Origin: Candidatus Moraniibacteriota bacterium
GTDB lineage: Bacteria; Patescibacteriota; Minisyncoccia; Moranbacterales; UBA1568
Direction of reading: 5' to 3'
DNA length: 64,000 bases
NCBI GenBank assembly: GCA_013336285.1
Contig: JAAXTX010000002.1
Location: 13,730-77,729, forward strand
Made by a program: the position numbers and the translations under genes
Notes under the pieces: model-generated
What the model was told of the DNA's origin: nothing
The model's database searches: none
The model's input: the letters and a program-made list of their open reading frames with translations, nothing else
In this document: in pieces, positions 2,355 through 60,221 of the stretch
Position numbering within the stretch: the stretch's first letter is position 1
Layout: each line of letters opens with the position of its first letter

Positions 2355-2663
2355 CTATGTTTCGGCATCCGACTCACCTACCATCCGCTCATACAGGTCA
2401 TCCCAGTTCGAATTCCCCCTTTCGATCAAATCGATCTTCCACTGTCGTTTCCAATTCTTCAATTGTTTCTCTCTCGAAAGAGCGCTCCGCACGTCTTCAG
2501 TCTGTTCGTAATAGACCAGACTACTGACGTCATATTTCTTTGTAAATCCGTCCACAGCCTTGTTTTTGTGCTGCCACACCCTTCCAAGCAAGTCCGATGT
2601 GATTCCGATATAGAGTGTCCCATTCTTTTTACTGGCCAGTATGTATACGAAATACTGTTTCAT
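2355..2663 (-). CDS. GIY-YIG nuclease family protein (UPF0213-like, stand-alone)
   Basis: 102 aa containing FVYILASKKNGTLYIGITSDLLGRVWQHK, the GIY...YIG motif with conserved R and downstream E. Confidence 0.8.
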   Translation of the reverse strand: MKQYFVYILASKKNGTLYIGITSDLLGRVWQHKNKAVDGFTKKYDVSSLVYYEQTEDVRSALSREKQLKNWKRQWKIDLIERGNSNWDDLYERMVGESDAET

Positions 2664-2859: not shown

Positions 2860-3567
2860 TCACTTTTCCAACTCCTTTAATATTTCCTCGACCTTCCCGA
2901 TCGCCTCGACCCGGATTCTTTCGGCTTCTTCTTTCGAAATGAGATCGTCCTCTTTCACATTTTCCAAAAAAGCCTCGACGGCCAGAGCGACGTTCGCATT
3001 ATCTTCACTTAGAACATGCAGGTCATTCGTCTTACTATTACATTCCTCTGCTTCCGCTTCCATTCCTATCATTCTATACAAGGCTGATGCGCCATGGACA
3101 AATTCTTCATTGTTATTGTACATCCCCTGACCCTCCTTTTGAGCTGCAAGAAACCAAATAAGAAGATCTCCGACTTTTTGCCATTTTTCACTCAGGTCGT
3201 CCTTTACCTTCTCATAGTCATTTAAATATGCGTAGGTCACATTATTCGCATGGCCTATCGAATCCACCCTTCCTGCTGTACCATCTTTCTTTTCCCCCTC
3301 AAGTATCATCCGGGCAGCTATAGAAAAACAGATTTGCTGATAATCACGCACGACATCTCTTAATACTAAGATATCTGCTTGTACAAGATAGAATAAAACA
3401 TTATATGGCTTATCATTTCGCAGCTCTACAAGTGCGCCTTCGAGATTTTCTTTTATTCGTTTCTTTTCGGGATCGATTTCGGTTTCTTTTAAATTCAAAG
3501 GTTCTCCCATTGGATTCTTGTTCGGCTTTTTCTCGTTTGAAGCAAGTCCATCAAATATTTCGGTCAT
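2860..3567 (-). CDS. Hypothetical acidic protein, cargo of the low-GC insert at the glyQS 3' end
   Basis: 235-aa ORF with visibly lower GC than its neighbours and no recognisable motif. It lies exactly between the two glyQS-terminus copies. Confidence 0.5.
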   Translation of the reverse strand: MTEIFDGLASNEKKPNKNPMGEPLNLKETEIDPEKKRIKENLEGALVELRNDKPYNVLFYLVQADILVLRDVVRDYQQICFSIAARMILEGEKKDGTAGRVDSIGHANNVTYAYLNDYEKVKDDLSEKWQKVGDLLIWFLAAQKEGQGMYNNNEEFVHGASALYRMIGMEAEAEECNSKTNDLHVLSEDNANVALAVEAFLENVKEDDLISKEEAERIRVEAIGKVEEILKELEK

Positions 3568-3581
3568 ATAATCGATGATGA

Positions 3582-4994
3582 TTATTTCTTCAGATTCTCC
3601 ACCAGATACGCCCGCAGTTCCGAGACTGGGATGCGGATCTGTTCCATCGTGTCACGATCACGGACGGTGACGGTGTCCTTGAGGGAAGCATCCTCGCCGA
3701 GGCCGACCGTGTCGAAGTCTATGGTGACACAGTACGGCGTGCCGATCTCGTCCTGCCGTCGATACCGCTTGCCGACGTTTCCGTTGTCGTCATACTCGGT
3801 CGCGAAGTCGCTCTTGAGAGAATCGAATATGCCACGTGCCGCAGCCACGAGTTCGGGCTTATTGCGCAGGAGCGGGAACACCGCGACCTTGACCGGGGCA
3901 AGCTTCTTCGGGAATTTGAGCACGACGCGCGTGTCGCCCTCCTTTACCTCTTCCTCGGCATACGCGTCAGTCAGCACCGCAAGGAACGTCCGATCGACAC
4001 CGACGGACGTCTCGACGATCCACGGGACGTACTTCTCCCCCGTCTGCGGATCTCGGTACGAGAGATCGACGCCGGAAAACTCTGAGTGCTGAGTCAGATC
4101 GTAATCGCTCCGATTATGGACGCCTTCGAGTTCCTTGAACCCGAACGGGAAGTTGTACTCGATGTCCCATGCCGCCTTCGCGTAAAACACGAGATTCTCG
4201 TGCTGGTGCCACTGCAGATTCTCCGGCTTGAGCCCGAGGTCGAGATAATACTGCCAGCGCTTTTCCCTCCACTGCTCATAATAATCGGTGGCCGTATCGG
4301 GATGGACGAAAAACTGCATCTCCATCTGTTCGAACTCACGCTTACGGAAGATGAACTGCCGAGCGGTGATTTCGTTTCGGAACGCCTTGCCGATCTGCGC
4401 GATACCGAACGGGACCTTCATCCGCGTCGAATCAAGCACGTTCTTGAAATTGACATAGATACCCTGACACGTCTCGCCGCGAAGGTATGTCGGTTCCTTG
4501 TCCCAGTCCCCGGTGAAGTTTCCGAGGTTGGATTTCACGAGCAGATTGAAGCTCTTCGCTTCGGTAAAATCATGCCCGCCGCACTTCGGACACACAACCT
4601 TGCCCTTGTGTTCGGAAAAGAGTGCGTTGATCTCCTCCTCGGTCATCTTCTCGTCGGCAAATATGCCGGCTTCCTCGAGAAGATGGTCCACGCGTACGCG
4701 CGAGTGGCACTTCCTGCATTCGGCCAAAGGGTCGCTGAACCCGCCGACATGACCGGACGCCTGCCAGACCTTCGGATGCATGAAAATCGCACTGTCGAGG
4801 CCGACGATGTTCTCGTGCTCGCGCACCATCGCCTGCCACCACGCCTCGCGGATATTGCGGGCGAGTTCGGCTCCGTACGGTCCGAAATCGTACACCGCCG
4901 CGAATCCACCGTAGATCTCCGAGCTCGGGAACACGAACCCACGCCGCTTCGAGAGCGAGATCAGCTTGTCCATCAGGTTTTCAACTTGTGCCAT
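3582..4994 (-). CDS. glyQS: Glycyl-tRNA synthetase, dimeric class II type
   Basis: 470 aa. The N-terminus FVFPSSEIYGGFAAVYDFGPYG and overall architecture are typical of alpha2 GlyRS, with class II motifs present. Confidence 0.9.
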   Translation of the reverse strand: MAQVENLMDKLISLSKRRGFVFPSSEIYGGFAAVYDFGPYGAELARNIREAWWQAMVREHENIVGLDSAIFMHPKVWQASGHVGGFSDPLAECRKCHSRVRVDHLLEEAGIFADEKMTEEEINALFSEHKGKVVCPKCGGHDFTEAKSFNLLVKSNLGNFTGDWDKEPTYLRGETCQGIYVNFKNVLDSTRMKVPFGIAQIGKAFRNEITARQFIFRKREFEQMEMQFFVHPDTATDYYEQWREKRWQYYLDLGLKPENLQWHQHENLVFYAKAAWDIEYNFPFGFKELEGVHNRSDYDLTQHSEFSGVDLSYRDPQTGEKYVPWIVETSVGVDRTFLAVLTDAYAEEEVKEGDTRVVLKFPKKLAPVKVAVFPLLRNKPELVAAARGIFDSLKSDFATEYDDNGNVGKRYRRQDEIGTPYCVTIDFDTVGLGEDASLKDTVTVRDRDTMEQIRIPVSELRAYLVENLKK

Positions 4995-11808: not shown

Positions 11809-12321
11809 TTAATCTTCCAGAAAACTCAGGATGCACTCAACCGAATCTCCGATTGCCGTATCGGTATCGAGAAATAGCTTCGGATCCGACATGATGCGAT
11901 AATCGAAGTCATTTCTCATGAAACATCTCTCCGCATCGTGATGCGCCGGATGCCGCTCCCGCGACCGGAATCTCCGCTCCCGCTCCGGTTCATCGATCCG
12001 ACAAACGACGACGCGGACGACATGTCCACTCTCGGCGATATGGGCGATCCGATCCGCATTGCCAAGACGGTCAAACGTCGCATCACAAACGATATCATGT
12101 CCACTTTCCAAAGCCTCGTCGATAAACTGGAACAGACGAACGTTCACTTCTCTGCTGAAGCGGTCGCTCTCTTGAAGCGATGTGCCGCTTTTTTGACGAT
12201 ACAATTCAATCTTCACGTCATCCTCGCAGCATCGAACGATTCCCAAGCGTTCGGAGACAATTTCGGAAAGGGTCGTCTTTCCCGAACCAGGCAACCCGCA
12301 GAATATAATGGCCCTACTCAT
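11809..12321 (-). CDS. P-loop NTPase/kinase (AAA_33-like), paralog 1
   Basis: 170 aa with the Walker A motif GLPGSGKTT at residues 9-17. It is about 45% identical to the 12915-13424 product. Confidence 0.7.
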   Translation of the reverse strand: MSRAIIFCGLPGSGKTTLSEIVSERLGIVRCCEDDVKIELYRQKSGTSLQESDRFSREVNVRLFQFIDEALESGHDIVCDATFDRLGNADRIAHIAESGHVVRVVVCRIDEPERERRFRSRERHPAHHDAERCFMRNDFDYRIMSDPKLFLDTDTAIGDSVECILSFLED

Positions 12322-12329
12322 AGAAAATA

Positions 12330-12878
12330 CTACAGCAAGCCGAGATAATCGAGACCGAGATACCCGACATTGACGTCGGTCAACTGTCCTGAACGGAGAT
12401 GTGTGCGAAACTCCGACAATGTCATCAATACCGCCTCCACATTCTCCCCATTGTCTTCCAAGCGCGGCTCGGCAATTTTTTCACAATCCGTTACGACGAA
12501 CGCATGCCTCCGGGACGACGCGTATGCATCCACCAGCAATGTTGCGACATATTGAAGCGTACCTCGATATCCGGTCTCCTCCAATAGCTCACGCGCCACA
12601 GCGACCTCCGGAGTTTCCCCTTCCTTCGCGCTGCCGCCCGGAAGTTCACACACGACCTTGGCCGGACCGGGCCTGTATTGTCTCGCGAGAATGACTTTTC
12701 CGTCCTTCGTCATCGGCAGACAACAGATCGGGTCATGCCCTCCCTGCAGATAGAAATCCGTCTCTCTCCCATCAGGGAGTCGGAACATCACCTTCTCAAT
12801 CACCCGACTGTATTTCCGAAAGACCTCTTCCCGGGAAAGTTCTTTCCATGGTTGAACTTTATCCATATTGATATTCAC
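12330..12878 (-). CDS. NUDIX hydrolase (ADP-ribose pyrophosphatase-like)
   Basis: NUDIX box GGSAKEGETPEVAVARELLEETG. Confidence 0.85.
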   Translation of the reverse strand: MNINMDKVQPWKELSREEVFRKYSRVIEKVMFRLPDGRETDFYLQGGHDPICCLPMTKDGKVILARQYRPGPAKVVCELPGGSAKEGETPEVAVARELLEETGYRGTLQYVATLLVDAYASSRRHAFVVTDCEKIAEPRLEDNGENVEAVLMTLSEFRTHLRSGQLTDVNVGYLGLDYLGLL

Positions 12879-12914
12879 TACCGAATAAAATGATTCGGAA
12901 AGAAATTACTTTCC

Positions 12915-13424
12915 TCAATTGAGAAACTTTATAATTTTCTCAACTGACTCCCCTATCGGCTTTGCCGTATCTAACAAGAGTTTCTTTCCCGGCATCAATC
13001 CATAATCAAATATATCCTCGAAAAAAGTTCTCTCCGTGCCATGATATGCCTCATGCCGAGGACGGCTGACAAACCTCCGCTTTCGTTCTTCTTCGTCCAC
13101 CCGACACACAATCACTCTTACATCCCGCCCCTCAGTCACCCATTTTACGAATTGTTCTACATTGTCCGGATGATTGAACGTCGACTCGATGATAATATCG
13201 GTTCCGTTCTTCATTGCGTCATCCGCCAAAGCGATGAGGAGTCGTATCGAATGAAATCCGATCTTCCGACTATCATCAAGACTCATTCCGTTCAGATACC
13301 CATGCAAACGCTTCTTGACCGCATCCTTATGCAAGCAGAATATGTTCATCTGACACGAAACCTCGGTCGCGAGAGTCGTCTTCCCCGAACCGGGTAAACC
13401 ACAAAATACGATGACCCTGTTCAT
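12915..13424 (-). CDS. P-loop NTPase/kinase (AAA_33-like), paralog 2
   Basis: 169 aa with GLPGSGKTT and a conserved ...VCR(I/V)DE(P/E)ER(E/K)RRF.SR.RH.A.H..ER.F..DFDY..M block shared with paralog 1. It overlaps the ileS stop by 4 nt. Confidence 0.7.
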   Translation of the reverse strand: MNRVIVFCGLPGSGKTTLATEVSCQMNIFCLHKDAVKKRLHGYLNGMSLDDSRKIGFHSIRLLIALADDAMKNGTDIIIESTFNHPDNVEQFVKWVTEGRDVRVIVCRVDEEERKRRFVSRPRHEAYHGTERTFFEDIFDYGLMPGKKLLLDTAKPIGESVEKIIKFLN

Positions 13425-16400
13425 ACATTCCGTTTGAGTGCGAAGGAAAACATCCCCCCCTCTATCTTCGCGATCTCGCGATAGTCCGCATCCGCTATAT
13501 CGCCGCGAACGACTTCGGTCGCAAGTGTCTCGCGCGCGATCTCATCCCCGAATCCGTTCACCTCGACATCTCCGTCGAAGACCCGCTCCTTCCCCACGAT
13601 ACCGAGCGTGATCCTATCACTCACCTCGAATCCGGCTTTCTTGCGCCCTTCCTGGATCGCCCGAATGATTTCCCGTGCCTCGCCTTCGAGTGCGAGCTGT
13701 GGGGTGATTTCGGTATCCAATGCGATATCTTCGACCGTGGAACCGTCGAAACAGACTCCTTTAACATTGAGCTCCTCGAAAATGATCCGCTCCAAGAACA
13801 ATCTATCCTGAGAATCCGAGACGGCATCGAAAAGTTCCTGGTATTTCTCGCTTTTCAGCCGGATCTCGTTCAGAGGTTGCCGTACCTTGATTTTCGCCTC
13901 GGCACGTTTCTGAAGTCCTGAGCTGACAATCTCTCTCACCTGACTCATCATCACATTTAGCTTTTCATCAATTTTTCCTTCATCCGTTTCCGGCCACTCG
14001 GCAAGATGGACCGACCCGGGAACATCCTTAGATTCCGGGTCAAGCCCGGAATGACAATTCATAAGGTTCAGATAGATCTCCTCGGAAATGAACGGGGTGA
14101 ACGGTGCCATGAGCTTCGAGAGCGTGACGAGTACCTCGTAGAGCGTCGCATAGGCGGCGTCCTTGTCTCCGTCGTTCTCGTTCTTCCAGAAGCGCTTCCG
14201 ATTCCGGCGGATATACCAGTTCGACAGTTCATCGATGAACGATTCGATCTTGGCCGTCGGCGAATACAGGTCGTACGACGCGAGTGCCTCATCGACCTCG
14301 CGGACCAGCGCCTGCAGTTCGGACAAAATCCAGCGATCGAGGATATTCTCGGATTTCTTCGCATCCTTCCTTGGTTCCCACCCGTCGATCGACGCGTACG
14401 TCGTGAAGAACGAATACGAGTTCCAGAGCATCCGGAAGATGCGGTTCATCACGTCGCGCATCCCTTTCTCGTCGAACCGTTTCGGCAGTCCCGGCTGGTT
14501 GATGGAATACAGATACCACCGCAGCGCGTCCGCCCCGTATTTCTCGAACATCTCGAACGGATCCACGACGTTCCCCTTGGACTTGGACATCTTCTTTCCC
14601 TTCGCATCGAGGACGTGTCCCAGACAGACGACGTTCTGATACGCGTTTCCTTCGCGCACGACTCCCGCCTTGTGAAGCAAGGTCGCGATCGCGTGCAGCG
14701 TGTAGAACCACCCGCGGGTCTGATCGATCGCCTCACTGATATAATCAGCCGGGAAGTACTTCCCTTCGCCGATCCCGTTTTTCTCCTCGTCGGTCGCGCT
14801 TGCGGGAAATCCGAACTGCGCCAAGGGCATCGCTCCGGAATCGAACCACACGTCGAGCACCTCGGGTGTCCGTTTCATCGCCCCCTTCCCGCATTCGCAC
14901 GGCCACCATACTTCATCGATATACGGCTTGTGTAGGTCTTCCGGTTTCTTTCCGGACAGTTCCTTAAGTTTCGCTTTCGAATCGACAACCATCCTATGCC
15001 CACACCCGGTGCATTCCCATACCGGAATCGGCGTCCCCCAATATCGGTCGCGCGAGATCGCCCAATCCTTCGCCCCCTTGAGCCACTCCCCGAAACGGCC
15101 TTCCTTGATGTGCTCCGGCACCCAAGCTATCGACTCGGCATTCTGCGTAAGCTCCTCACGGACCGTGCTCATCGCGATAAACCACGACGGCTTCGCATAA
15201 TAAATCAAAGGCGTATCACACCGCCAGCAATGCGGATACTCATGCTCGTATACTTCTTCACGTAAGAGCAATCCGCGCTCACGGAGATCCGCGACGACGA
15301 GTTCGTCCACGGCAGACTTGTTCTTGTCATTCTTTTTCTTGACCGGCATACCGGCCCCGGGAAACCCTTTCAGCATCTTTCCCTCGAGGTCCACCGTGTG
15401 AAGTGTGGGAAGTCCGTTCGCCCGTGCAAGCTCCGCGTCATCCTCACCGAATGCCGGCGCGATATGCACGATGCCGGACCCGTCATCGGTCGTCACGAAG
15501 CCCGCCGCATATACTTTCCAGGCGTTCTCCAGGTTTTCATCCGCACCTTCAGCCGTTCCTTGGAACAATGGCTCATACGCGACTCCGACCAACTTCCCGC
15601 CAAGCACTGTCTCGTTCACTGTGAAAGCATCGGGTGATACGGCATCTTTCCGACCCGAGGCCATAATGAGATTTTCCGATACCGACTCGGCACCCTCGGC
15701 TGTGCCGGGCGCCGCGACCGTCCCCACCACGTATTCGATATCCCCGTTCACGGCAAGCGCGACATTCCCCGGAAGCGTCCACGGTGTCGTCGTCCACGCG
15801 ACGAGATACGTTCGGTCATCGGCAGTGAATGCGCCGATCTTCTGACCGGGCTTCACCCGGAATTTCACGAATGCGGAAGTATCCTTCACGGTCTGATATC
15901 CCTGAGCTACCTCGTGCGAGGAGAGCGCTGTCCCACACCGGTAGCAATACGGCACGACCTTATGCCCCCGATAGAGGAGATCGTTCCCGTTCGTATCCTT
16001 CTGTTCCGCGATCTTCGAGAACTGCCACCAGACCGATTCGATATAGCTATCCTCATAGGTGACATACGGATGTTCCATATCCACCCAGTACCCCATACGC
16101 TTCGTGAGCTTCTCCCACAGATCCCGATACTCCCAGACGGATTCTTTGCACTTACTATTGAACTCGATGACACTCGCGCGCGTATCGCCCGGCACGATGT
16201 TCTCGATATCCTGCTTATTCCTGAGTCCGAGCGCCTTTTCCACCTGGAGCTCGACCGGCAATCCGTGCGTGTCCCATCCGGCCTTGCGGCGAACACGATA
16301 ACCCTTCATCGTCTTGTAACGCGGCACGGCATCCTTGAACGATCGGGCAAGCACATGGTGCAAGCCCGGCTTCCCGTTGGCCGTCGGCGGTCCCTCATAA

Positions 16401-16528
16401 AAGACGAAGTCTCCTTTCGGCGCATCCTTCTCGACGGACTTCCTAAAGATATCGTTCGCGTCCCAATACGCGAGAATTTCTTCCTCCATCTTCGGGAAAT
16501 CGGATTTGGGGTCGATTTTTCTGATCAT
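13421..16528 (-). CDS. ileS: Isoleucyl-tRNA synthetase
   Basis: 1035 aa with the HIGH-type motif PPTANGKPGLHHV, KMSKS as KMSKSKGN, and editing and anticodon-binding regions. Confidence 0.95.
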   Translation of the reverse strand: MIRKIDPKSDFPKMEEEILAYWDANDIFRKSVEKDAPKGDFVFYEGPPTANGKPGLHHVLARSFKDAVPRYKTMKGYRVRRKAGWDTHGLPVELQVEKALGLRNKQDIENIVPGDTRASVIEFNSKCKESVWEYRDLWEKLTKRMGYWVDMEHPYVTYEDSYIESVWWQFSKIAEQKDTNGNDLLYRGHKVVPYCYRCGTALSSHEVAQGYQTVKDTSAFVKFRVKPGQKIGAFTADDRTYLVAWTTTPWTLPGNVALAVNGDIEYVVGTVAAPGTAEGAESVSENLIMASGRKDAVSPDAFTVNETVLGGKLVGVAYEPLFQGTAEGADENLENAWKVYAAGFVTTDDGSGIVHIAPAFGEDDAELARANGLPTLHTVDLEGKMLKGFPGAGMPVKKKNDKNKSAVDELVVADLRERGLLLREEVYEHEYPHCWRCDTPLIYYAKPSWFIAMSTVREELTQNAESIAWVPEHIKEGRFGEWLKGAKDWAISRDRYWGTPIPVWECTGCGHRMVVDSKAKLKELSGKKPEDLHKPYIDEVWWPCECGKGAMKRTPEVLDVWFDSGAMPLAQFGFPASATDEEKNGIGEGKYFPADYISEAIDQTRGWFYTLHAIATLLHKAGVVREGNAYQNVVCLGHVLDAKGKKMSKSKGNVVDPFEMFEKYGADALRWYLYSINQPGLPKRFDEKGMRDVMNRIFRMLWNSYSFFTTYASIDGWEPRKDAKKSENILDRWILSELQALVREVDEALASYDLYSPTAKIESFIDELSNWYIRRNRKRFWKNENDGDKDAAYATLYEVLVTLSKLMAPFTPFISEEIYLNLMNCHSGLDPESKDVPGSVHLAEWPETDEGKIDEKLNVMMSQVREIVSSGLQKRAEAKIKVRQPLNEIRLKSEKYQELFDAVSDSQDRLFLERIIFEELNVKGVCFDGSTVEDIALDTEITPQLALEGEAREIIRAIQEGRKKAGFEVSDRITLGIVGKERVFDGDVEVNGFGDEIARETLATEVVRGDIADADYREIAKIEGGMFSFALKRNV
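14041..14066. repeat. REP-like palindrome copy inside the ileS coding sequence (in-frame, encodes CHSGLDPE)
   Basis: GATTCCGGGTCAAGCCCGGAATGACA is the reverse complement of the 2283-2305 element. Confidence 0.55.
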
Positions 16529-16694
16529 ATGTTTGATATCAATAGAATTATATGACGATTGCTATGACACGAAAACCTCTCATTTCCCAAAGCTACGGAT
16601 GGCGCCACCCTTGATTATCACTCTCTTGCAAAATACCATCCCAACCACACATACAGCTTATTTCAAGAATAAGCATGCCCCTTCAAGCCTAACC

Positions 16695-16722
16695 TTGACT
16701 TTTCTTTATTTTCATGTATAAT
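16695..16722 (+). promoter_or_regulatory. Near-consensus sigma70-type promoter TTGACT-N16-TATAAT
   Basis: TTGACTtttctttattttcatgTATAAT, about 55 nt upstream of the small ORF at 16778. Confidence 0.5.
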
Positions 16723-16777
16723 AGAAGTAAGTTGAAAAACTGGCTTCTTAGCTTCTTAAAAATCATAAAAATCTACC

Positions 16778-16927
16778 ATGAAAAAATTTATCGTTTCCGC
16801 ACCCCTTGTGGGAATGCTCGCCTTCCTCGGCCTTGTAGTGGCGGCGGAAGGCAGCGAGGGTTTCTTGCGAGCGTTAAGCTCGCTTGGGACCGCTTTCTGC
16901 ACTGGTCCAATAATTTTTTTACACTAG
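16778..16927 (+). CDS. Small secreted or membrane peptide (49 aa) with N-terminal signal-like helix
   Basis: MKKFIVSAPLVGMLAFLGLVVAAEGSEGFLRALSSLGTAFCTGPIIFLH. It has its own promoter and a downstream hairpin plus T7, and lies in a low-GC insert. It is below the ORF-track size cutoff. Confidence 0.4.
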   Translation: MKKFIVSAPLVGMLAFLGLVVAAEGSEGFLRALSSLGTAFCTGPIIFLH

Positions 16928-17037
16928 GTTTGAAAACTTACGGCTGCTGGTCTATGATCGGCAGTTTTTTTATTCCAGTATCTTAAAAGGCAAGTCCTCT
17001 TTTGGAAATCCGTCTTCGGATCGATCTTTCTGATCAT
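16924..17037 (-). pseudogene. Orphan duplicate of the ileS 5' terminus (MIRKIDPKTDFQK... followed by out-of-context sequence)
   Basis: About 40 bp at 16998-17040 match the ileS start region 16488-16530 at about 82% identity, with shared TTTCTGATCATAT. The first 13 codons match IleRS MIRKIDPKSDFPK. Confidence 0.5.
16941..16971 (+). terminator. Intrinsic terminator (hairpin CGGCTGCTGG...CGGCAG followed by T7)
   Basis: Imperfect stem followed by TTTTTTT, immediately after the small ORF. Confidence 0.4.
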
Positions 17038-17048
17038 ATTCGATTCGA

Positions 17049-17468
17049 TTATTGATCTAATGAGGCTAGAAACGCCGCCTCATCCGGATACCGCTCCTCG
17101 AAAATGAGATAGAGCGTTTCCGGTTTTTCAGGTTCGCCGATCAGGATCAGATGTTTACCGAGCCCGTACGCGATCCCCGCCTCGATATGAGCGGCGTTCC
17201 CGCACGGCAGCAACATGATGACTTTCTCCGCATTCTTCAATCCGTCCAAGTCGCAACGGAACATATCGATGAAATGCGGGTTTGTATAAAAATTCTCGGT
17301 CGCTTCATGTATCGCCATCTGTTCCTCGGGACTTGCGTCCGGATTCTTCGGATCAGCCGGTATCTCGCAGAAATCATAGCAGGTCTTTCCCCGTTTACGC
17401 AGTTCGGCAACCAGCGCCTGCACCCGTTCCTTGTTTCGGAATTTCGAAATGATGGTGAAATCGGTCAT
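17049..17468 (-). CDS. Nucleoside 2-deoxyribosyltransferase-like (PF05014-like) protein
   Basis: The LPCGNAAHIEAGIAYGLGKHLILIG motif and a size of about 139 aa fit the NDT-like fold. The start is assigned to MTDFTIIS..., and the longer listed ORF would run over a terminator hairpin. Confidence 0.5.
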   Translation of the reverse strand: MTDFTIISKFRNKERVQALVAELRKRGKTCYDFCEIPADPKNPDASPEEQMAIHEATENFYTNPHFIDMFRCDLDGLKNAEKVIMLLPCGNAAHIEAGIAYGLGKHLILIGEPEKPETLYLIFEERYPDEAAFLASLDQ

Positions 17469-17717
17469 AGCGGTTGATACAAAAAATCCCTCCCCGAAAG
17501 ACAGGGAAGGACGGAAAGACCGTGGTACCACCTTCGTTCGCGACGACCGAACCGTCCGATCATCGCCTTCGTGTACGGCTGTCACGGGCCTACCCGTCGG
17601 ATTCTACCGCGCCAAGCCGAAGCGCTTCGCGAAGGCTGGCTGCCTTCTCACGTATGACTGACGTTTCTTTCCGAGGCGTACCCCGATACGGATCGGGGCT
17701 CCGGAGTGATGGCTCCG
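17469..17717 (-). promoter_or_regulatory. GC-rich structured leader with intrinsic terminator immediately upstream of the NDT-like gene (candidate riboswitch/attenuator)
   Basis: On the minus strand it has long-range complementary segments (GGACGG...CCGTCC). It ends with a CCTTCCCTG...GGGGAGGGA hairpin plus T6 about 10 nt before the ATG. No coding potential. Confidence 0.3.
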
Positions 17718-18209
17718 TTATCGCCGTTCCCTATTGTGAAGCCCGTCCCGGTTCCGGGAAAATATCTCCCATCCCTTGCGGATATCATCCCGTACTCCGG
17801 GAATGAAGTCAAATCCGGAAAGGTCTTCGATCGACTGCCAGCGACATTCGGAGTGTTCGTGTTCATCGCATACGGGCTCCGTCCGCCCTTCGCCATACCC
17901 CTCACAGAAACAGACGAACTTTATGCCCGGGATCTTTTTCTGCGACAGGTCCGGTACGGCGATCTCATACGTCGAGAACGGTATCGCTCCGCCGATACGG
18001 ATGTCGAATTCCTCGCGCATCTGCCGGACGACCGCTTCCTCGAAATTCTCACCGGCGTGTACCTGACCGCCACCGCATTCCCACTGCCCGGGATAGAGTG
18101 CCCGGGTCTCTTGCCGTTTCGCGATCAGCGCGACGATACCGGCCTCCGTCTCCCGGAGACAGATGCCTGCCACATGTACCTCGATGAGTTCACGATGATC
18201 TTCCCTCAT
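17718..18209 (-). CDS. NUDIX hydrolase (MutT-like)
   Basis: NUDIX box GGGQVHAGENFEEAVVRQMREEFDI. Confidence 0.8.
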   Translation of the reverse strand: MREDHRELIEVHVAGICLRETEAGIVALIAKRQETRALYPGQWECGGGQVHAGENFEEAVVRQMREEFDIRIGGAIPFSTYEIAVPDLSQKKIPGIKFVCFCEGYGEGRTEPVCDEHEHSECRWQSIEDLSGFDFIPGVRDDIRKGWEIFSRNRDGLHNRERR

Positions 18210-18878: not shown

Positions 18879-19049
18879 TCAATAGGACGCATGCGCCGTC
18901 TTCACCGCGGAAGCGAGCCCCTTGGCTCCCCCGTGCGCGGCTGACGATATGTCGATGCCTGCCGCTATTATAAGCGACAGCACGACCGGAACGACGATCT
19001 TCACCGCGAAGAACACCGTCTGCTCATCTTTTCCAAACTTCCGCGCCAT
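18879..19049 (-). CDS. Possible small membrane protein (56 aa)
   Basis: MARKFGKDEQTVFFAVKIVVPVVLSLIIAAGIDISS... has one predicted transmembrane helix, but there is no other support. Confidence 0.25.
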   Translation of the reverse strand: MARKFGKDEQTVFFAVKIVVPVVLSLIIAAGIDISSAAHGGAKGLASAVKTAHASY

Positions 19050-19154
19050 AGAAGTGAGATGAGAAAGGGTACAAAACAAACTGCACCGTCATCGTATCAT
19101 ACCGTCTTTTTTTTATCAAGCTGCACCGATAATCAGACAGCGAGACCTCACCTG

Positions 19155-21849: not shown

Positions 21850-22246
21850 GGGGTTGTTTAGTTTCGACAGCGAGTTCATTCAGAACCTGCAAGCCGATGA
21901 TGGGGAGTCATCGTAAAAAATCCCCACACACGATATCTGCCAACATCGTATCAAAGGTGAAGATGGCGTTCGCTAACGCGTTCTCCCCGTCTTTCGCTTC
22001 AGCTCTCGCCTAAGGGCGTGAGCCATCGGACCCCCGATGTCTGATAGGGGTCATCCGGTGTCATATCATCAGACGGACCGACAGGAGTCTTTCCTCCATT
22101 CACTTCGTCGGCCCGGCATGAAAAGAGGCCCTGGGAAGGTTTCCGTCCGCCTTTCCGCTTTCCGGGGAACCAAAGGCTGACTATGCTTGTAGACGGTTTT
22201 GGAAAAACCCGTTTGGACATGGGTGCGATTCCCATCAACTCCACAC
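21850..22246 (+). ncRNA. ssrA: tmRNA (ssrA)
   Basis: The 5' end GGGGTTGTTTAGTTTCGACAGCG matches the tmRNA 5' consensus GGGGCUGAUUCUGGAUUCGACGGG. The 3' end has the T-arm GGGTGCGATTCCCAT and the acceptor strand CAACTCC+A pairing with GGGGUUG, including the G3:U pair. An internal in-frame tag reading frame ...AFANAFSPSFASALA* ends about 21960-22012. It sits immediately downstream of smpB. Confidence 0.7.
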
Positions 22247-22410
22247 AGAAGCTGTGAAAGCTTCAAAAGCTTCTCTAGCTGCAAAGCTTCTGAAGCCGAT
22301 GAGGCTTATCAGCACAGCAAAGGTAATAGCTCATGAAGCTTCCGAAGCTCATGAAGCTTGAAATTTAAAGCTTACGAAGCTATAGAAGCTTCCGGAGTTC
22401 ATGAAGCTAT
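22247..22410. repeat. Low-complexity tract dense in GAAGCTTC/AAGCTT (HindIII-site) palindromes between tmRNA and infC
   Basis: At least 8 AAGCTT hexamers and repeated CATGAAGCT/CGAAGCT units in about 160 bp. The first unit GAAGCTgtgaaAGCTTC forms a hairpin. Confidence 0.5.
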
Positions 22411-58530: not shown

Positions 58531-58607
58531 AAAAATGTTGTCCTCGCTTTCCAGTTTTTTCTTCACGATCTCGAACTCATTCTCGGCTTCCTTGAGTTTC
58601 TCAAAAT
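58531..58607 (-). pseudogene. Orphan duplicate of the xseB 3' terminus (encodes ...EKLKEAENEFEIVKKKLESEDNIF*)
   Basis: About 57 bp match 60024-60085 with 4 mismatches, with perfect cores ATCTCGAACTCATTCTCGGC and TCCTTGAGTTTCTC. It is in frame with a diverged XseB C-terminus. Confidence 0.6.
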
Positions 58608-60008: not shown

Positions 60009-60221
60009 CTATTCCTCCCCTTCCAGTTCCTTCTTCACTATCTCGAACTCATTCTCGGCCTCCTTGAGTTTCTCGCGGCTTTCCTTCACGAGTACCGCAC
60101 CTGCTTTCACCTTCGCGAGCCCCTCCTCGACATCTACCTCCTCTTGACTCTCGAACCAGGCGACGATTTCCTCCAATTTCTTCAGCGACTCCCCAAGCGA
60201 CTGCTTCTTTTCCTGTGGCAT
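60009..60221 (-). CDS. xseB: Exodeoxyribonuclease VII small subunit
   Basis: 70 aa with LEEIVAWFESQEEVDVEEGLAKVKAGAVLVKESREKLKEAE, the XseB coiled-coil pattern. Confidence 0.8.
   Translation of the reverse strand: MPQEKKQSLGESLKKLEEIVAWFESQEEVDVEEGLAKVKAGAVLVKESREKLKEAENEFEIVKKELEGEE

Follow-up and report, generated by a model that had tools for sequence, protein, structure and literature searches.

Why does the start of ileS, the essential and riboswitch-controlled gene of isoleucyl-tRNA synthetase (IleRS), occur twice in the genome of a Candidatus Moraniibacteriota bacterium, and what is the DNA that parts the two copies? The locus lies in a stretch of 64,000 nucleotides (hereafter the window, meaning the whole stretch analyzed), for which an original prediction made from the letters had proposed a low-GC module inserted at the 5' end of ileS, with duplication of the start region. 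Relative to genomes that keep the site empty, the window has a clean 509-bp insertion bounded by a 13-nt core. We consider it probable that this insertion is fairly recent and entered the first codons of ileS without an integrase, by recombination on homology to the ileS 5' end, with homology-facilitated illegitimate recombination (HFIR) as the preferred route.

Repeat of the ileS start and comparison with empty sites

The repeat predicted at the ileS start is real: positions 16489-16530 and 16998-17039 are identical at 34 of 42 nucleotides (81%), and a gapped local alignment pairs 16530-16485 with 17039-16995. The pairwise alignment suggested as a check was run by aligning the ileS start to the 1.2 kb upstream of it, with 2000 dinucleotide shuffles for comparison; the repeat scored 45, the shuffles averaged 19.8 (sd 2.4, maximum 31) and none of them reached 45, which places the similarity beyond chance (p ~1e-6 by a Gumbel fit to the shuffle scores). 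Both copies contain a perfect 13-nt core, TTTCTGATCATAT, which includes the ATG, lies at 16518-16530 and 17027-17039, and reads ATATGATCAGAAA on the minus (coding) strand. The N-terminal peptides are MIRKIDPKSDFPK in ileS and MIRKIDPKTDFQK in the orphan copy, and six of the eight nucleotide differences between the copies fall at third codon positions (Fisher p=0.01). The similarity stops near 16995-16998, where the window sequence by itself offers a candidate GGA/GA microhomology; an extension of the orphan's likeness to ileS past codon 14 (a 'YW' match) was rejected, as it amounts to ~13/30 nt by our own count and is not significant.

Genome and metagenome scans reached relatives of only 60-70% amino acid identity, and the informative relatives were found through the protein clusters of IleRS and of the 139-amino-acid (139-aa) gene upstream of it. 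Four of the loci so obtained, L161, L171, L172 and L173, are empty sites, in which the stop codon of the 139-aa gene is followed by 11 nt, TCGAATCGAAT, and then by the ileS ATG, with no module. The window flanks match these four contigs at 97-100%, and the 139-aa protein shares 93-97% of its amino acids with its empty-site orthologues. Comparison of orthologous ileS upstream regions, which had been set as a test of the predicted insertion, thus bears it out, since the module is absent from these loci and is not a conserved leader.

The empty sites also locate the junctions. With L171 as the reference, the 111 nt of the window that end with the 13-nt core hold a single mismatch and the 29 nt after them hold eight (Fisher p=1e-5). 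The functional ileS copy, counted from the second core, differs at one position in 92 nt, and the 40 nt upstream of that core are unrelated to the empty site (7/40). Compared with the single-copy target of L161 and L171, the right-hand copy of the repeat matches at 42/42 positions and the left-hand copy at 33/42. Variants of the orphan recur in other working ileS starts (AAG and CCG in L172 and L173; GAT and CCG in L082). Because the switch is abrupt, biased toward third codon positions and made of variants found in other lineages, the orphan tail is a different ileS allele, and a recombination junction lies where it meets the core. Of the duplication originally proposed, the repeat itself stands; the orphan, however, is not a diverged duplicate, being identical to the empty site through the core and then switching allele abruptly. 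Its sequence in that allele is ATGATCAGAAAGATCGATCCGAAGACGGATTTCCAAAAG.

These observations bear directly on a classic insertion with an exact in-situ target duplication of ~42 bp, after which the orphan would have decayed neutrally to 81%. Such an event would account for a direct repeat of more than 30 bp that aligns to a single-copy target, a low-GC insert, the lack of mobility genes and the overlap with a gene end (PMC2853133). The published repeats, however, are near-identical (44/46 and 417/423; PMC2853133), whereas the match here is 34/42, and the change is abrupt, with no difference in the 24 nt of spacer and core, which are equally unconstrained, followed by 8/29. Moreover, the flanks differ from the empty sites by only ~1-3%, too little time for a neutral decay of 19-28%, and the third-position bias (6/8) also speaks against decay; altogether, we regard this explanation as unlikely.

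Far less probable still is that no insertion took place, the picture being due to chance similarity, to a normal ileS leader (T-box or attenuator) or to an assembly chimera of two strains. The contig does come from a metagenome assembly and a T-box does control ileS in this clade, but chance is excluded by the shuffles (0/2000), the T-box lies elsewhere (17504-17730), the module has no RNA-family match and orthologous loci are without it, so that chance similarity and a conserved leader are refuted as explanations. A de Bruijn assembly chimera was rejected as well, as neither of the junctions, 17027/17026 and 16531/16530, has the long exact k-mer overlap of such chimeras, the shared core being just 13 nt.

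The features discussed here and below are collected in Table 1. The closest genome relatives are Moraniibacteriota, at 60-76% amino acid identity, and the records include a protein 100% identical to this IleRS, named isoleucine--tRNA ligase, from a Candidatus Moranbacteria metagenome-assembled genome. As a separate observation, L161 and L173 both belong to GCA_013336235.1, which holds two contigs, each with the 139-aa gene and then ileS, whose ileS alleles and body types differ; this bin probably mixes two populations.

Table 1. Features of the ileS insertion locus and of the related sites in the window (positions in window coordinates).
Feature	Position	Strand	Basis or remark
ileS, isoleucyl-tRNA synthetase, 1035 aa, intact	13421..16528	-	Open reading frame (ORF); relatives
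Functional repeat copy: 2 nt before the ATG and first 40 nt of ileS	16489..16530	-	42/42 vs ileS starts of L161 and L171
Right-hand 13-nt core, right junction of the insert	16518..16530	.	Upstream similarity to empty sites only 7/40
Inserted module, 467 bp	16531..16997	.	Absent in L161, L171, L172, L173
Perfect TATAAT 18 nt before the ileS ATG, poor -35 (TTTTCG)	16547..16552	-	Weak candidate ileS promoter, inferred
Sigma-70-type promoter TTGACT-16-TATAAT, 11/12	16695..16722	+	Faces away from ileS
49-codon hydrophobic ORF, MKKFIVSAPLVGMLAFLGLVVAAEGSEGFLRALSSLGTAFCTGPIIFLH	16778..16927	+	Stretch also forms strongly structured RNA
Orphan ORF, 37 codons, MIRKIDPKTDFQKRTCLLRYWNKKTADHRPAAVSFQT	16924..17037	-	Begins where ileS originally started
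Intrinsic terminator of the small gene, 11-pair stem then T7	16942..16972	+	Fold -18.8 kcal/mol, z=-4.0
Orphan copy of the ileS start	16998..17039	-	Core 17027-17039 identical; other 29 nt are a different ileS allele
Nucleoside 2-deoxyribosyltransferase-like gene, 139 aa	17049..17468	-	phrog_12607, E=1.9e-14
Ile T-box leader: short stem I, AUC specifier, GGUGGUACCACG motif, terminator with U-run	17504..17730	-	RF00230
glyS-like class II synthetase gene	3582..4994		Last ~62 nt (3584-3645) recur at 2762-2823, 77%
xseB	60009..60221		Last ~62 nt (60013-60074) recur at 58541-58602, 90%

The inserted module and its cargo

The spacer, expected to be about 470 bp long and low in GC, measures 467 bp and has a GC content of 0.415 compared with 0.532 in the window; the part outside the small ORF (16531-16777) has a value of 0.36 and the ORF itself 0.51. 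The anatomy of the unit is plain: the promoter, the plus-strand 49-aa ORF and the hairpin followed by seven Ts that had been read from the sequence are all present at 11/12 (TTGACT-16-TATAAT), at 16778..16927 and at 16942-16966 (an 11-pair stem), respectively. Together they make a predicted self-contained plus-strand transcription unit, as the claim of independent transcription had it. Only three promoter matches of at least 11/12 occur on either strand of the 64 kb, the module's among them, and 1.3% of shuffled module sequences contain one of 11/12 or better. By our own pairing the terminator stem has four G-U pairs and would therefore be weaker on the minus strand, which makes it plus-strand-specific. 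The promoter is directed away from ileS, so that the small gene and ileS are divergent, a relation missed in the original prediction. A new ileS promoter arising from the minus-strand TATAAT at 16547-16552 is doubtful.

Apart from the 49-aa ORF, the 467 bp contain the end of the orphan ORF and a few unmatched ORFs that overlap the 49-aa one in other frames. At 16924-16927, a palindromic CTAG provides the TAG stop codon both to the 37-codon orphan ORF and to the convergent 49-codon ORF.

The 49-codon ORF has GC values of 0.54/0.44/0.56 at the three codon positions, resembling those of the window's genes (0.58/0.41/0.63). By eye, the encoded peptide has a Sec-signal-like N-terminus, with MKK, 20 hydrophobic residues and then VAA|E, and AlphaFold (AF2) run without an alignment, which is weak evidence, gives two helices (7-24 and 26-48; mean confidence, pLDDT, of 77). 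The cargo most likely encodes a small two-helix membrane protein or one that bears a signal peptide. Expression of the unit and a function for the peptide are, like the route of recombination discussed below, what we infer.

The peptide database search proposed for the 49-mer was run and gave no homologue: a word-indexed homologue search had no match, and a full HMMER scan of 1.84 billion representatives returned two hits, both very long proteins, which we read as spurious matches to repetitive sequence. Neither the 49-mer nor the other cargo proteins had anything credible in Pfam, PHROGs or PADLOC, and, when looked up by exact sequence, neither the 49-mer nor the 139-aa protein nor IleRS was on record. 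Rfam gave no match in 16350-17200 at E<=10, and at the gathering threshold it recognized the transfer-messenger RNA (tmRNA) alone in the entire window. Nothing similar to the module was found in the fetched loci (~170) or in the rest of the window by blastn, tblastn and tblastx, nor did the whole module match phage records or a 21-nt exact module pattern match viral contigs. Since ileS and the orphan border the unit on its two sides, it has no accessory genes for processing, export or immunity. A secreted peptide acting as a bacteriocin, signal or toxin, as was first suggested, is thus not established, there being no homologue or family match and the transcript being structured (z=-4.5).

This structure raises the alternative of a cargo that acts as a non-coding small RNA, with the 49-codon ORF incidental, which is possible but appears to us distinctly less likely than not. 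The predicted transcript of 247 nt folds at -84.5 kcal/mol (z=-4.5; 0/200 shuffles as good), and the 150-nt ORF segment folds with z=-4.5 on the plus strand versus -3.6 on the minus strand; the predicted fold includes a long-range A/U helix in which the start codon is paired with the 3' end of the ORF. The lack of a protein homologue in the searches made also agrees with a small RNA, as does an ATG that no Shine-Dalgarno sequence precedes. The latter counts against a coding role, and the ORF could indeed be a chance ORF in structured RNA, or the module inert DNA; nevertheless, the missing Shine-Dalgarno sequence is normal here, as only 11/44 genes of the window have one. No Rfam family appears even at the permissive threshold given above, the reading frame follows the genome's codon-position GC pattern, and the peptide has a coherent shape (basic N-terminus, hydrophobic helix of 20 residues, second helix), all of which speaks against a purely RNA cargo.

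The upstream operon and exchange at the T-box/ileS junction

In the window, the 139-aa gene directly follows an Ile T-box leader, and the orphan ATG lies 11 nt past its stop codon, exactly at the ileS start position of an Ile-T-box operon. This position of the orphan ATG, behind a cargo gene, was overlooked in the original prediction. Homologues of the 139-aa gene are named nucleoside 2-deoxyribosyltransferase by JGI (Joint Genome Institute), and the gene is ~97% identical to L161 and L171 at the nucleotide level; it is itself cargo between the T-box and ileS.

The window leader scores 30.5 bits in Rfam (RF00230; E=3.9e-5), under the gathering score, and homologous leaders score 71.6 bits in L088 and 43 bits in L083. 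In 11 aligned leaders, an ATC (Ile) specifier in a short stem I and the GGTGGTACCACG T-box motif are invariant, and a terminator with a T-run is present. Ile T-box leaders stand before ileS in several Moranbacteria (the window, L001, L002, L005, L083, L088, L161, L163-L165 and L172); their stem I is very short and they reach 30-72 bits with the Rfam model, under its gathering score. A degenerate second T-box around GGGTGGCGCCATCC (~16590-16605) was considered and rejected, having no Rfam support.

The argS and NUDIX genes and the body of ileS are only 75-85% identical to the empty-site contigs, and the tract from the 3' part of the T-box through the 139-aa gene to ~nt 90 of ileS is thus a recently exchanged segment. 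Nucleotides ~25-90 of ileS are 97-98% identical between the window and L161, L171, L172, L173 and L164, and the next 45 nt ~80% identical; ileS nt 1-90 (window 16440-16528) make up an arm conserved at 97-100%, which breaks off near nt 90. The arm is kept in L171 and L173 despite their different IleRS body type.

The content between the T-box and ileS also varies: no cargo in L001, L002, L005, L083 and L088; a 23S_rRNA_IVP-family gene in L163 and L164; the deoxyribosyltransferase-like gene alone in L161 and L171-L173; and both genes in L165-L169. In sequence comparison, the T-box/ileS junction behaves as a cassette-exchange site with conserved arms.

Further observations concern the surroundings of this junction. 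The IleRS of L171 (1892-5656) and L173 (765-3480) is of a different type, with an FFDGPPFATG motif, 1254 aa, and a His_Phos_1 (histidine-phosphatase) domain inserted or fused within the synthetase; these two loci share the 5' arm and the upstream 139-aa gene. Downstream of ileS (11809-13424), two AAA_33 kinase-like genes of the window enclose a NUDIX gene; the products of the kinase-like pair are ~40% identical by eye, and the ileS-proximal copy is low in GC. At the corresponding locus, L174 has only the kinase and L172 only the NUDIX gene. A conserved gene for a small membrane protein of ~50-57 aa (MARKFGKDEQTVFFAVKIVVPVVLSLIIAAGID...), unrelated to the module's 49-mer, lies between argS and a histidine phosphatase gene (window 18880-19050, minus strand; L172 3003-3152; L174 7498-7671). 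Finally, imperfect repeats resembling AGCT(C/T)ATGAAGCTTCCGAAGCT occupy 22250-22408, right after the tmRNA gene (21850-22246).

Similar architectures at glyS and xseB

The two further terminus duplications announced for the window both exist, at the ends of the glyS-like gene and of xseB (Table 1). The copies of the glyS end encode the peptides EQIRIPVSELRAYLVENLKK and DKISIPISELRAYLVENLQ and enclose a 235-aa low-GC orphan gene (2860..3567). Those of the xseB end enclose a 51-aa ORF and a 368-aa orphan gene, whose product has a weak PADLOC match to AbiC only (E=0.003). At either site the changes that distinguish the copies are synonymous or conservative (E/D, Q/K, V/I, K/Q), as between alleles, and the cargo stands between the orphan and the intact gene, as a model of anchored recombination predicts. 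No such terminus repeats occur in ~59 kb of relatives.

The glyS orphan is closely followed downstream by a gene for a GIY-YIG nuclease of 102 aa (2355..2663; Pfam E=5e-17), flanked (2143-2760) by palindromic stretches that translate as '...IPGQARNDK...' or '...IPGQDRDDA...'. This nuclease gene could be a homing-type selfish gene beside a cargo site.

Origin of the insertion

On the sequence comparisons, recombination anchored on the conserved 5' end of ileS is the most likely origin of the insert. The ancestral order would have been Ile T-box leader, 139-aa deoxyribosyltransferase-like gene, 11 nt and ileS, and the incoming DNA would have combined a small self-contained transcription unit with a stretch homologous to the 5' end of ileS. 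By the preferred route, HFIR during natural transformation, the donor fragment would consist of the module and the start of ileS. One of its ends would find its anchor, through homologous recombination, in the highly conserved first ~90 nt of ileS, and the other would join illegitimately ~42 nt into the recipient's ileS; the 42 nt with which the recipient's gene had begun would then remain behind the upstream gene as an orphan. A circularized fragment with the orphan's allele, integrated by a single crossover at the 13-nt core, would work equally well. In either case only events that spare the essential gene would survive selection, which would give rise to the 'duplicated terminus' look, in the glyS and xseB cases as well.

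HFIR is favored because linear DNA suffices, the process is established in competent bacteria, CPR (candidate phyla radiation) bacteria can be competent, and the sister cases fit it. An excerpt of PMC3240628 describes HFIR as integrating linear DNA through one homologous end and one illegitimate end, and natural competence of CPR Saccharibacteria is stated in an excerpt of PMC10633639. Integrase-free insertions with target duplications of more than 30 bp and low-GC inserts come mainly from naturally competent bacteria (PMC2853133).

Several points weigh against this reconstruction. The data fit a linear as well as a circular route, and either copy as the native one, and cannot separate them. 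The searches found no donor-type locus, that is, the module beside an ileS with the orphan's allele; HFIR needs the recipient to have had an earlier recombination junction right at the 13-nt core; the circular route needs a circle of 0.5 kb, and we know of no such circle. In addition, the window contains nothing bearing on natural competence in Moranbacteria, and the contig is a metagenome assembly.

The perfect core at both junctions invites comparison with a miniature site-specific element, a circle of ~0.5 kb mobilized in trans that would use its mimic of the ileS start as an attachment site and integrate at ATATGATCAGAAA, with the glyS and xseB cassettes as siblings using mimics of other gene ends. 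Homeologous flanks around a perfect 13-nt core are what attL/attR sites look like, one crossover at the core would explain the entire structure, and three such architectures occur in 64 kb versus none in the 59 kb of relatives. No recombinase, however, lies in or beside the insert, the cores of the three cases are mutually unrelated, and the three cassettes have neither shared sequence nor terminal inverted repeats (by inspection, with no mutual alignment). Besides, no second copy of the module appeared in the searched loci or phage records, nor in viral contigs for the one 21-nt pattern, and we hold such an element to be rather unlikely.

The region 16531-16997 contains no integrase or transposase, its neighbors being ileS and the deoxyribosyltransferase-like gene; no inverted repeats were found at the module ends, nor another copy in the window or in the ~170 fetched loci. 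An insertion sequence or a miniature inverted-repeat transposable element was rejected for the absence of terminal inverted repeats and of further copies. An integron cassette was set aside, with no integrase or attC-like site noticed in a study that made no search aimed at attC, and an intron or intein was rejected because the downstream ileS copy is complete by itself.

Consequences and significance

The insertion puts 509 nt more between ileS and the T-box operon and would have ended the translational coupling of ileS to the upstream gene. From the 139-aa gene to ileS no terminator appeared on the minus strand, so that read-through from the T-box operon probably still transcribes ileS, with a leader 509 nt longer. 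The small transcript would converge on the T-box operon and be antisense, and fully complementary, to the read-through ileS leader, a relation overlooked in the original prediction. Here a riboswitch stands physically apart from the gene under its control, which makes the locus a natural experiment.

What is documented here is an integrase-free insertion of an already known kind. To our knowledge, such an insertion has not been described in this clade or at a junction of riboswitch and aminoacyl-tRNA synthetase gene, and no literature search for this specific case was made. It gives a base-pair-level record, before and after, of the gain of accessory DNA by an uncultured CPR bacterium with a streamlined genome, achieved with no mobile-element machinery and at a point inside the start of an essential, riboswitch-controlled gene that is left intact. 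Moreover, the comparison exposes a junction with conserved arms at which unrelated small genes are swapped among species otherwise 75-85% identical. If the pattern is general, it would be a source of many lineage-specific small orphan genes in CPR genomes, and genetic tools for these organisms might make use of such sites as natural points of entry.

A bolder and improbable extension would see a class of integrase-free mini-cassettes in CPR bacteria, each of which carries along a copy of an essential gene's terminus (the ileS start, the glyS and xseB ends) as its homing address, with the T-box/ileS junction as a dedicated exchange site and the cargo as an addiction unit, in which the mRNA of a small toxic membrane peptide is kept in check by antisense read-through of the Ile-T-box operon. 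If that were true, retention of the cassette would be tied to expression of an essential gene.

Comparison with known systems

Insertion with long target duplication was reportedly described by Nobusato et al. in 2000. It is also the subject of Furuta et al., 2010 (PMC2853133). The present locus shares with it a foreign low-GC insert flanked by direct repeats of more than 30 bp that align to a single-copy target and overlap gene ends, the lack of a transposase or integrase in the insert, and presence in one genome with absence at the same site in relatives (four empty sites). It differs in its cargo, which is a 0.25-kb small-gene unit and not a restriction-modification system, in its CPR host, and in its repeats, which are 81% identical compared with 95-100% and are two ileS alleles joined by an abrupt switch.

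HFIR is reported, in an excerpt of PMC3240628, for naturally transformable Acinetobacter, Streptococcus pneumoniae and Pseudomonas stutzeri. As in those systems, the incoming end here would be anchored in conserved homology (the first ~90 nt of ileS) and the other end joined without homology, with no dedicated recombinase; this would explain both the allele difference between the copies and a cargo that always lies just outside the conserved gene. In contrast, the process is read here from sequence and is not known from Moranbacteria, the anchor would be short, and the outcome is a duplication of the target end, whereas the usual outcome is a deletion.

Some integrative elements, such as the islands and prophages directed at tRNA genes, insert at the end of a gene and bring a replacement for that end with them; they likewise leave a direct repeat of the target terminus around the insert, an intact gene, and an identical core with diverged flanks. 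Unlike them, this insert has no integrase, measures 0.5 kb, sits at the 5' end of a protein-coding gene, and has no other copies found.

Type I toxin-antitoxin loci (hok/sok, aapA/isoA and similar) offer the nearest analogy for the cargo, and the resemblance is generic. No credible promoter for a discrete antisense small RNA was found on the module's minus strand, and the peptide has no homology to a known toxin family, with no PADLOC, Pfam or PHROG match. The predicted features held in common would be a peptide of ~50 aa with a hydrophobic N-terminal helix, a strong promoter of its own, a structured mRNA whose start codon is paired with its 3' end, and a possible overlapping antisense transcript.

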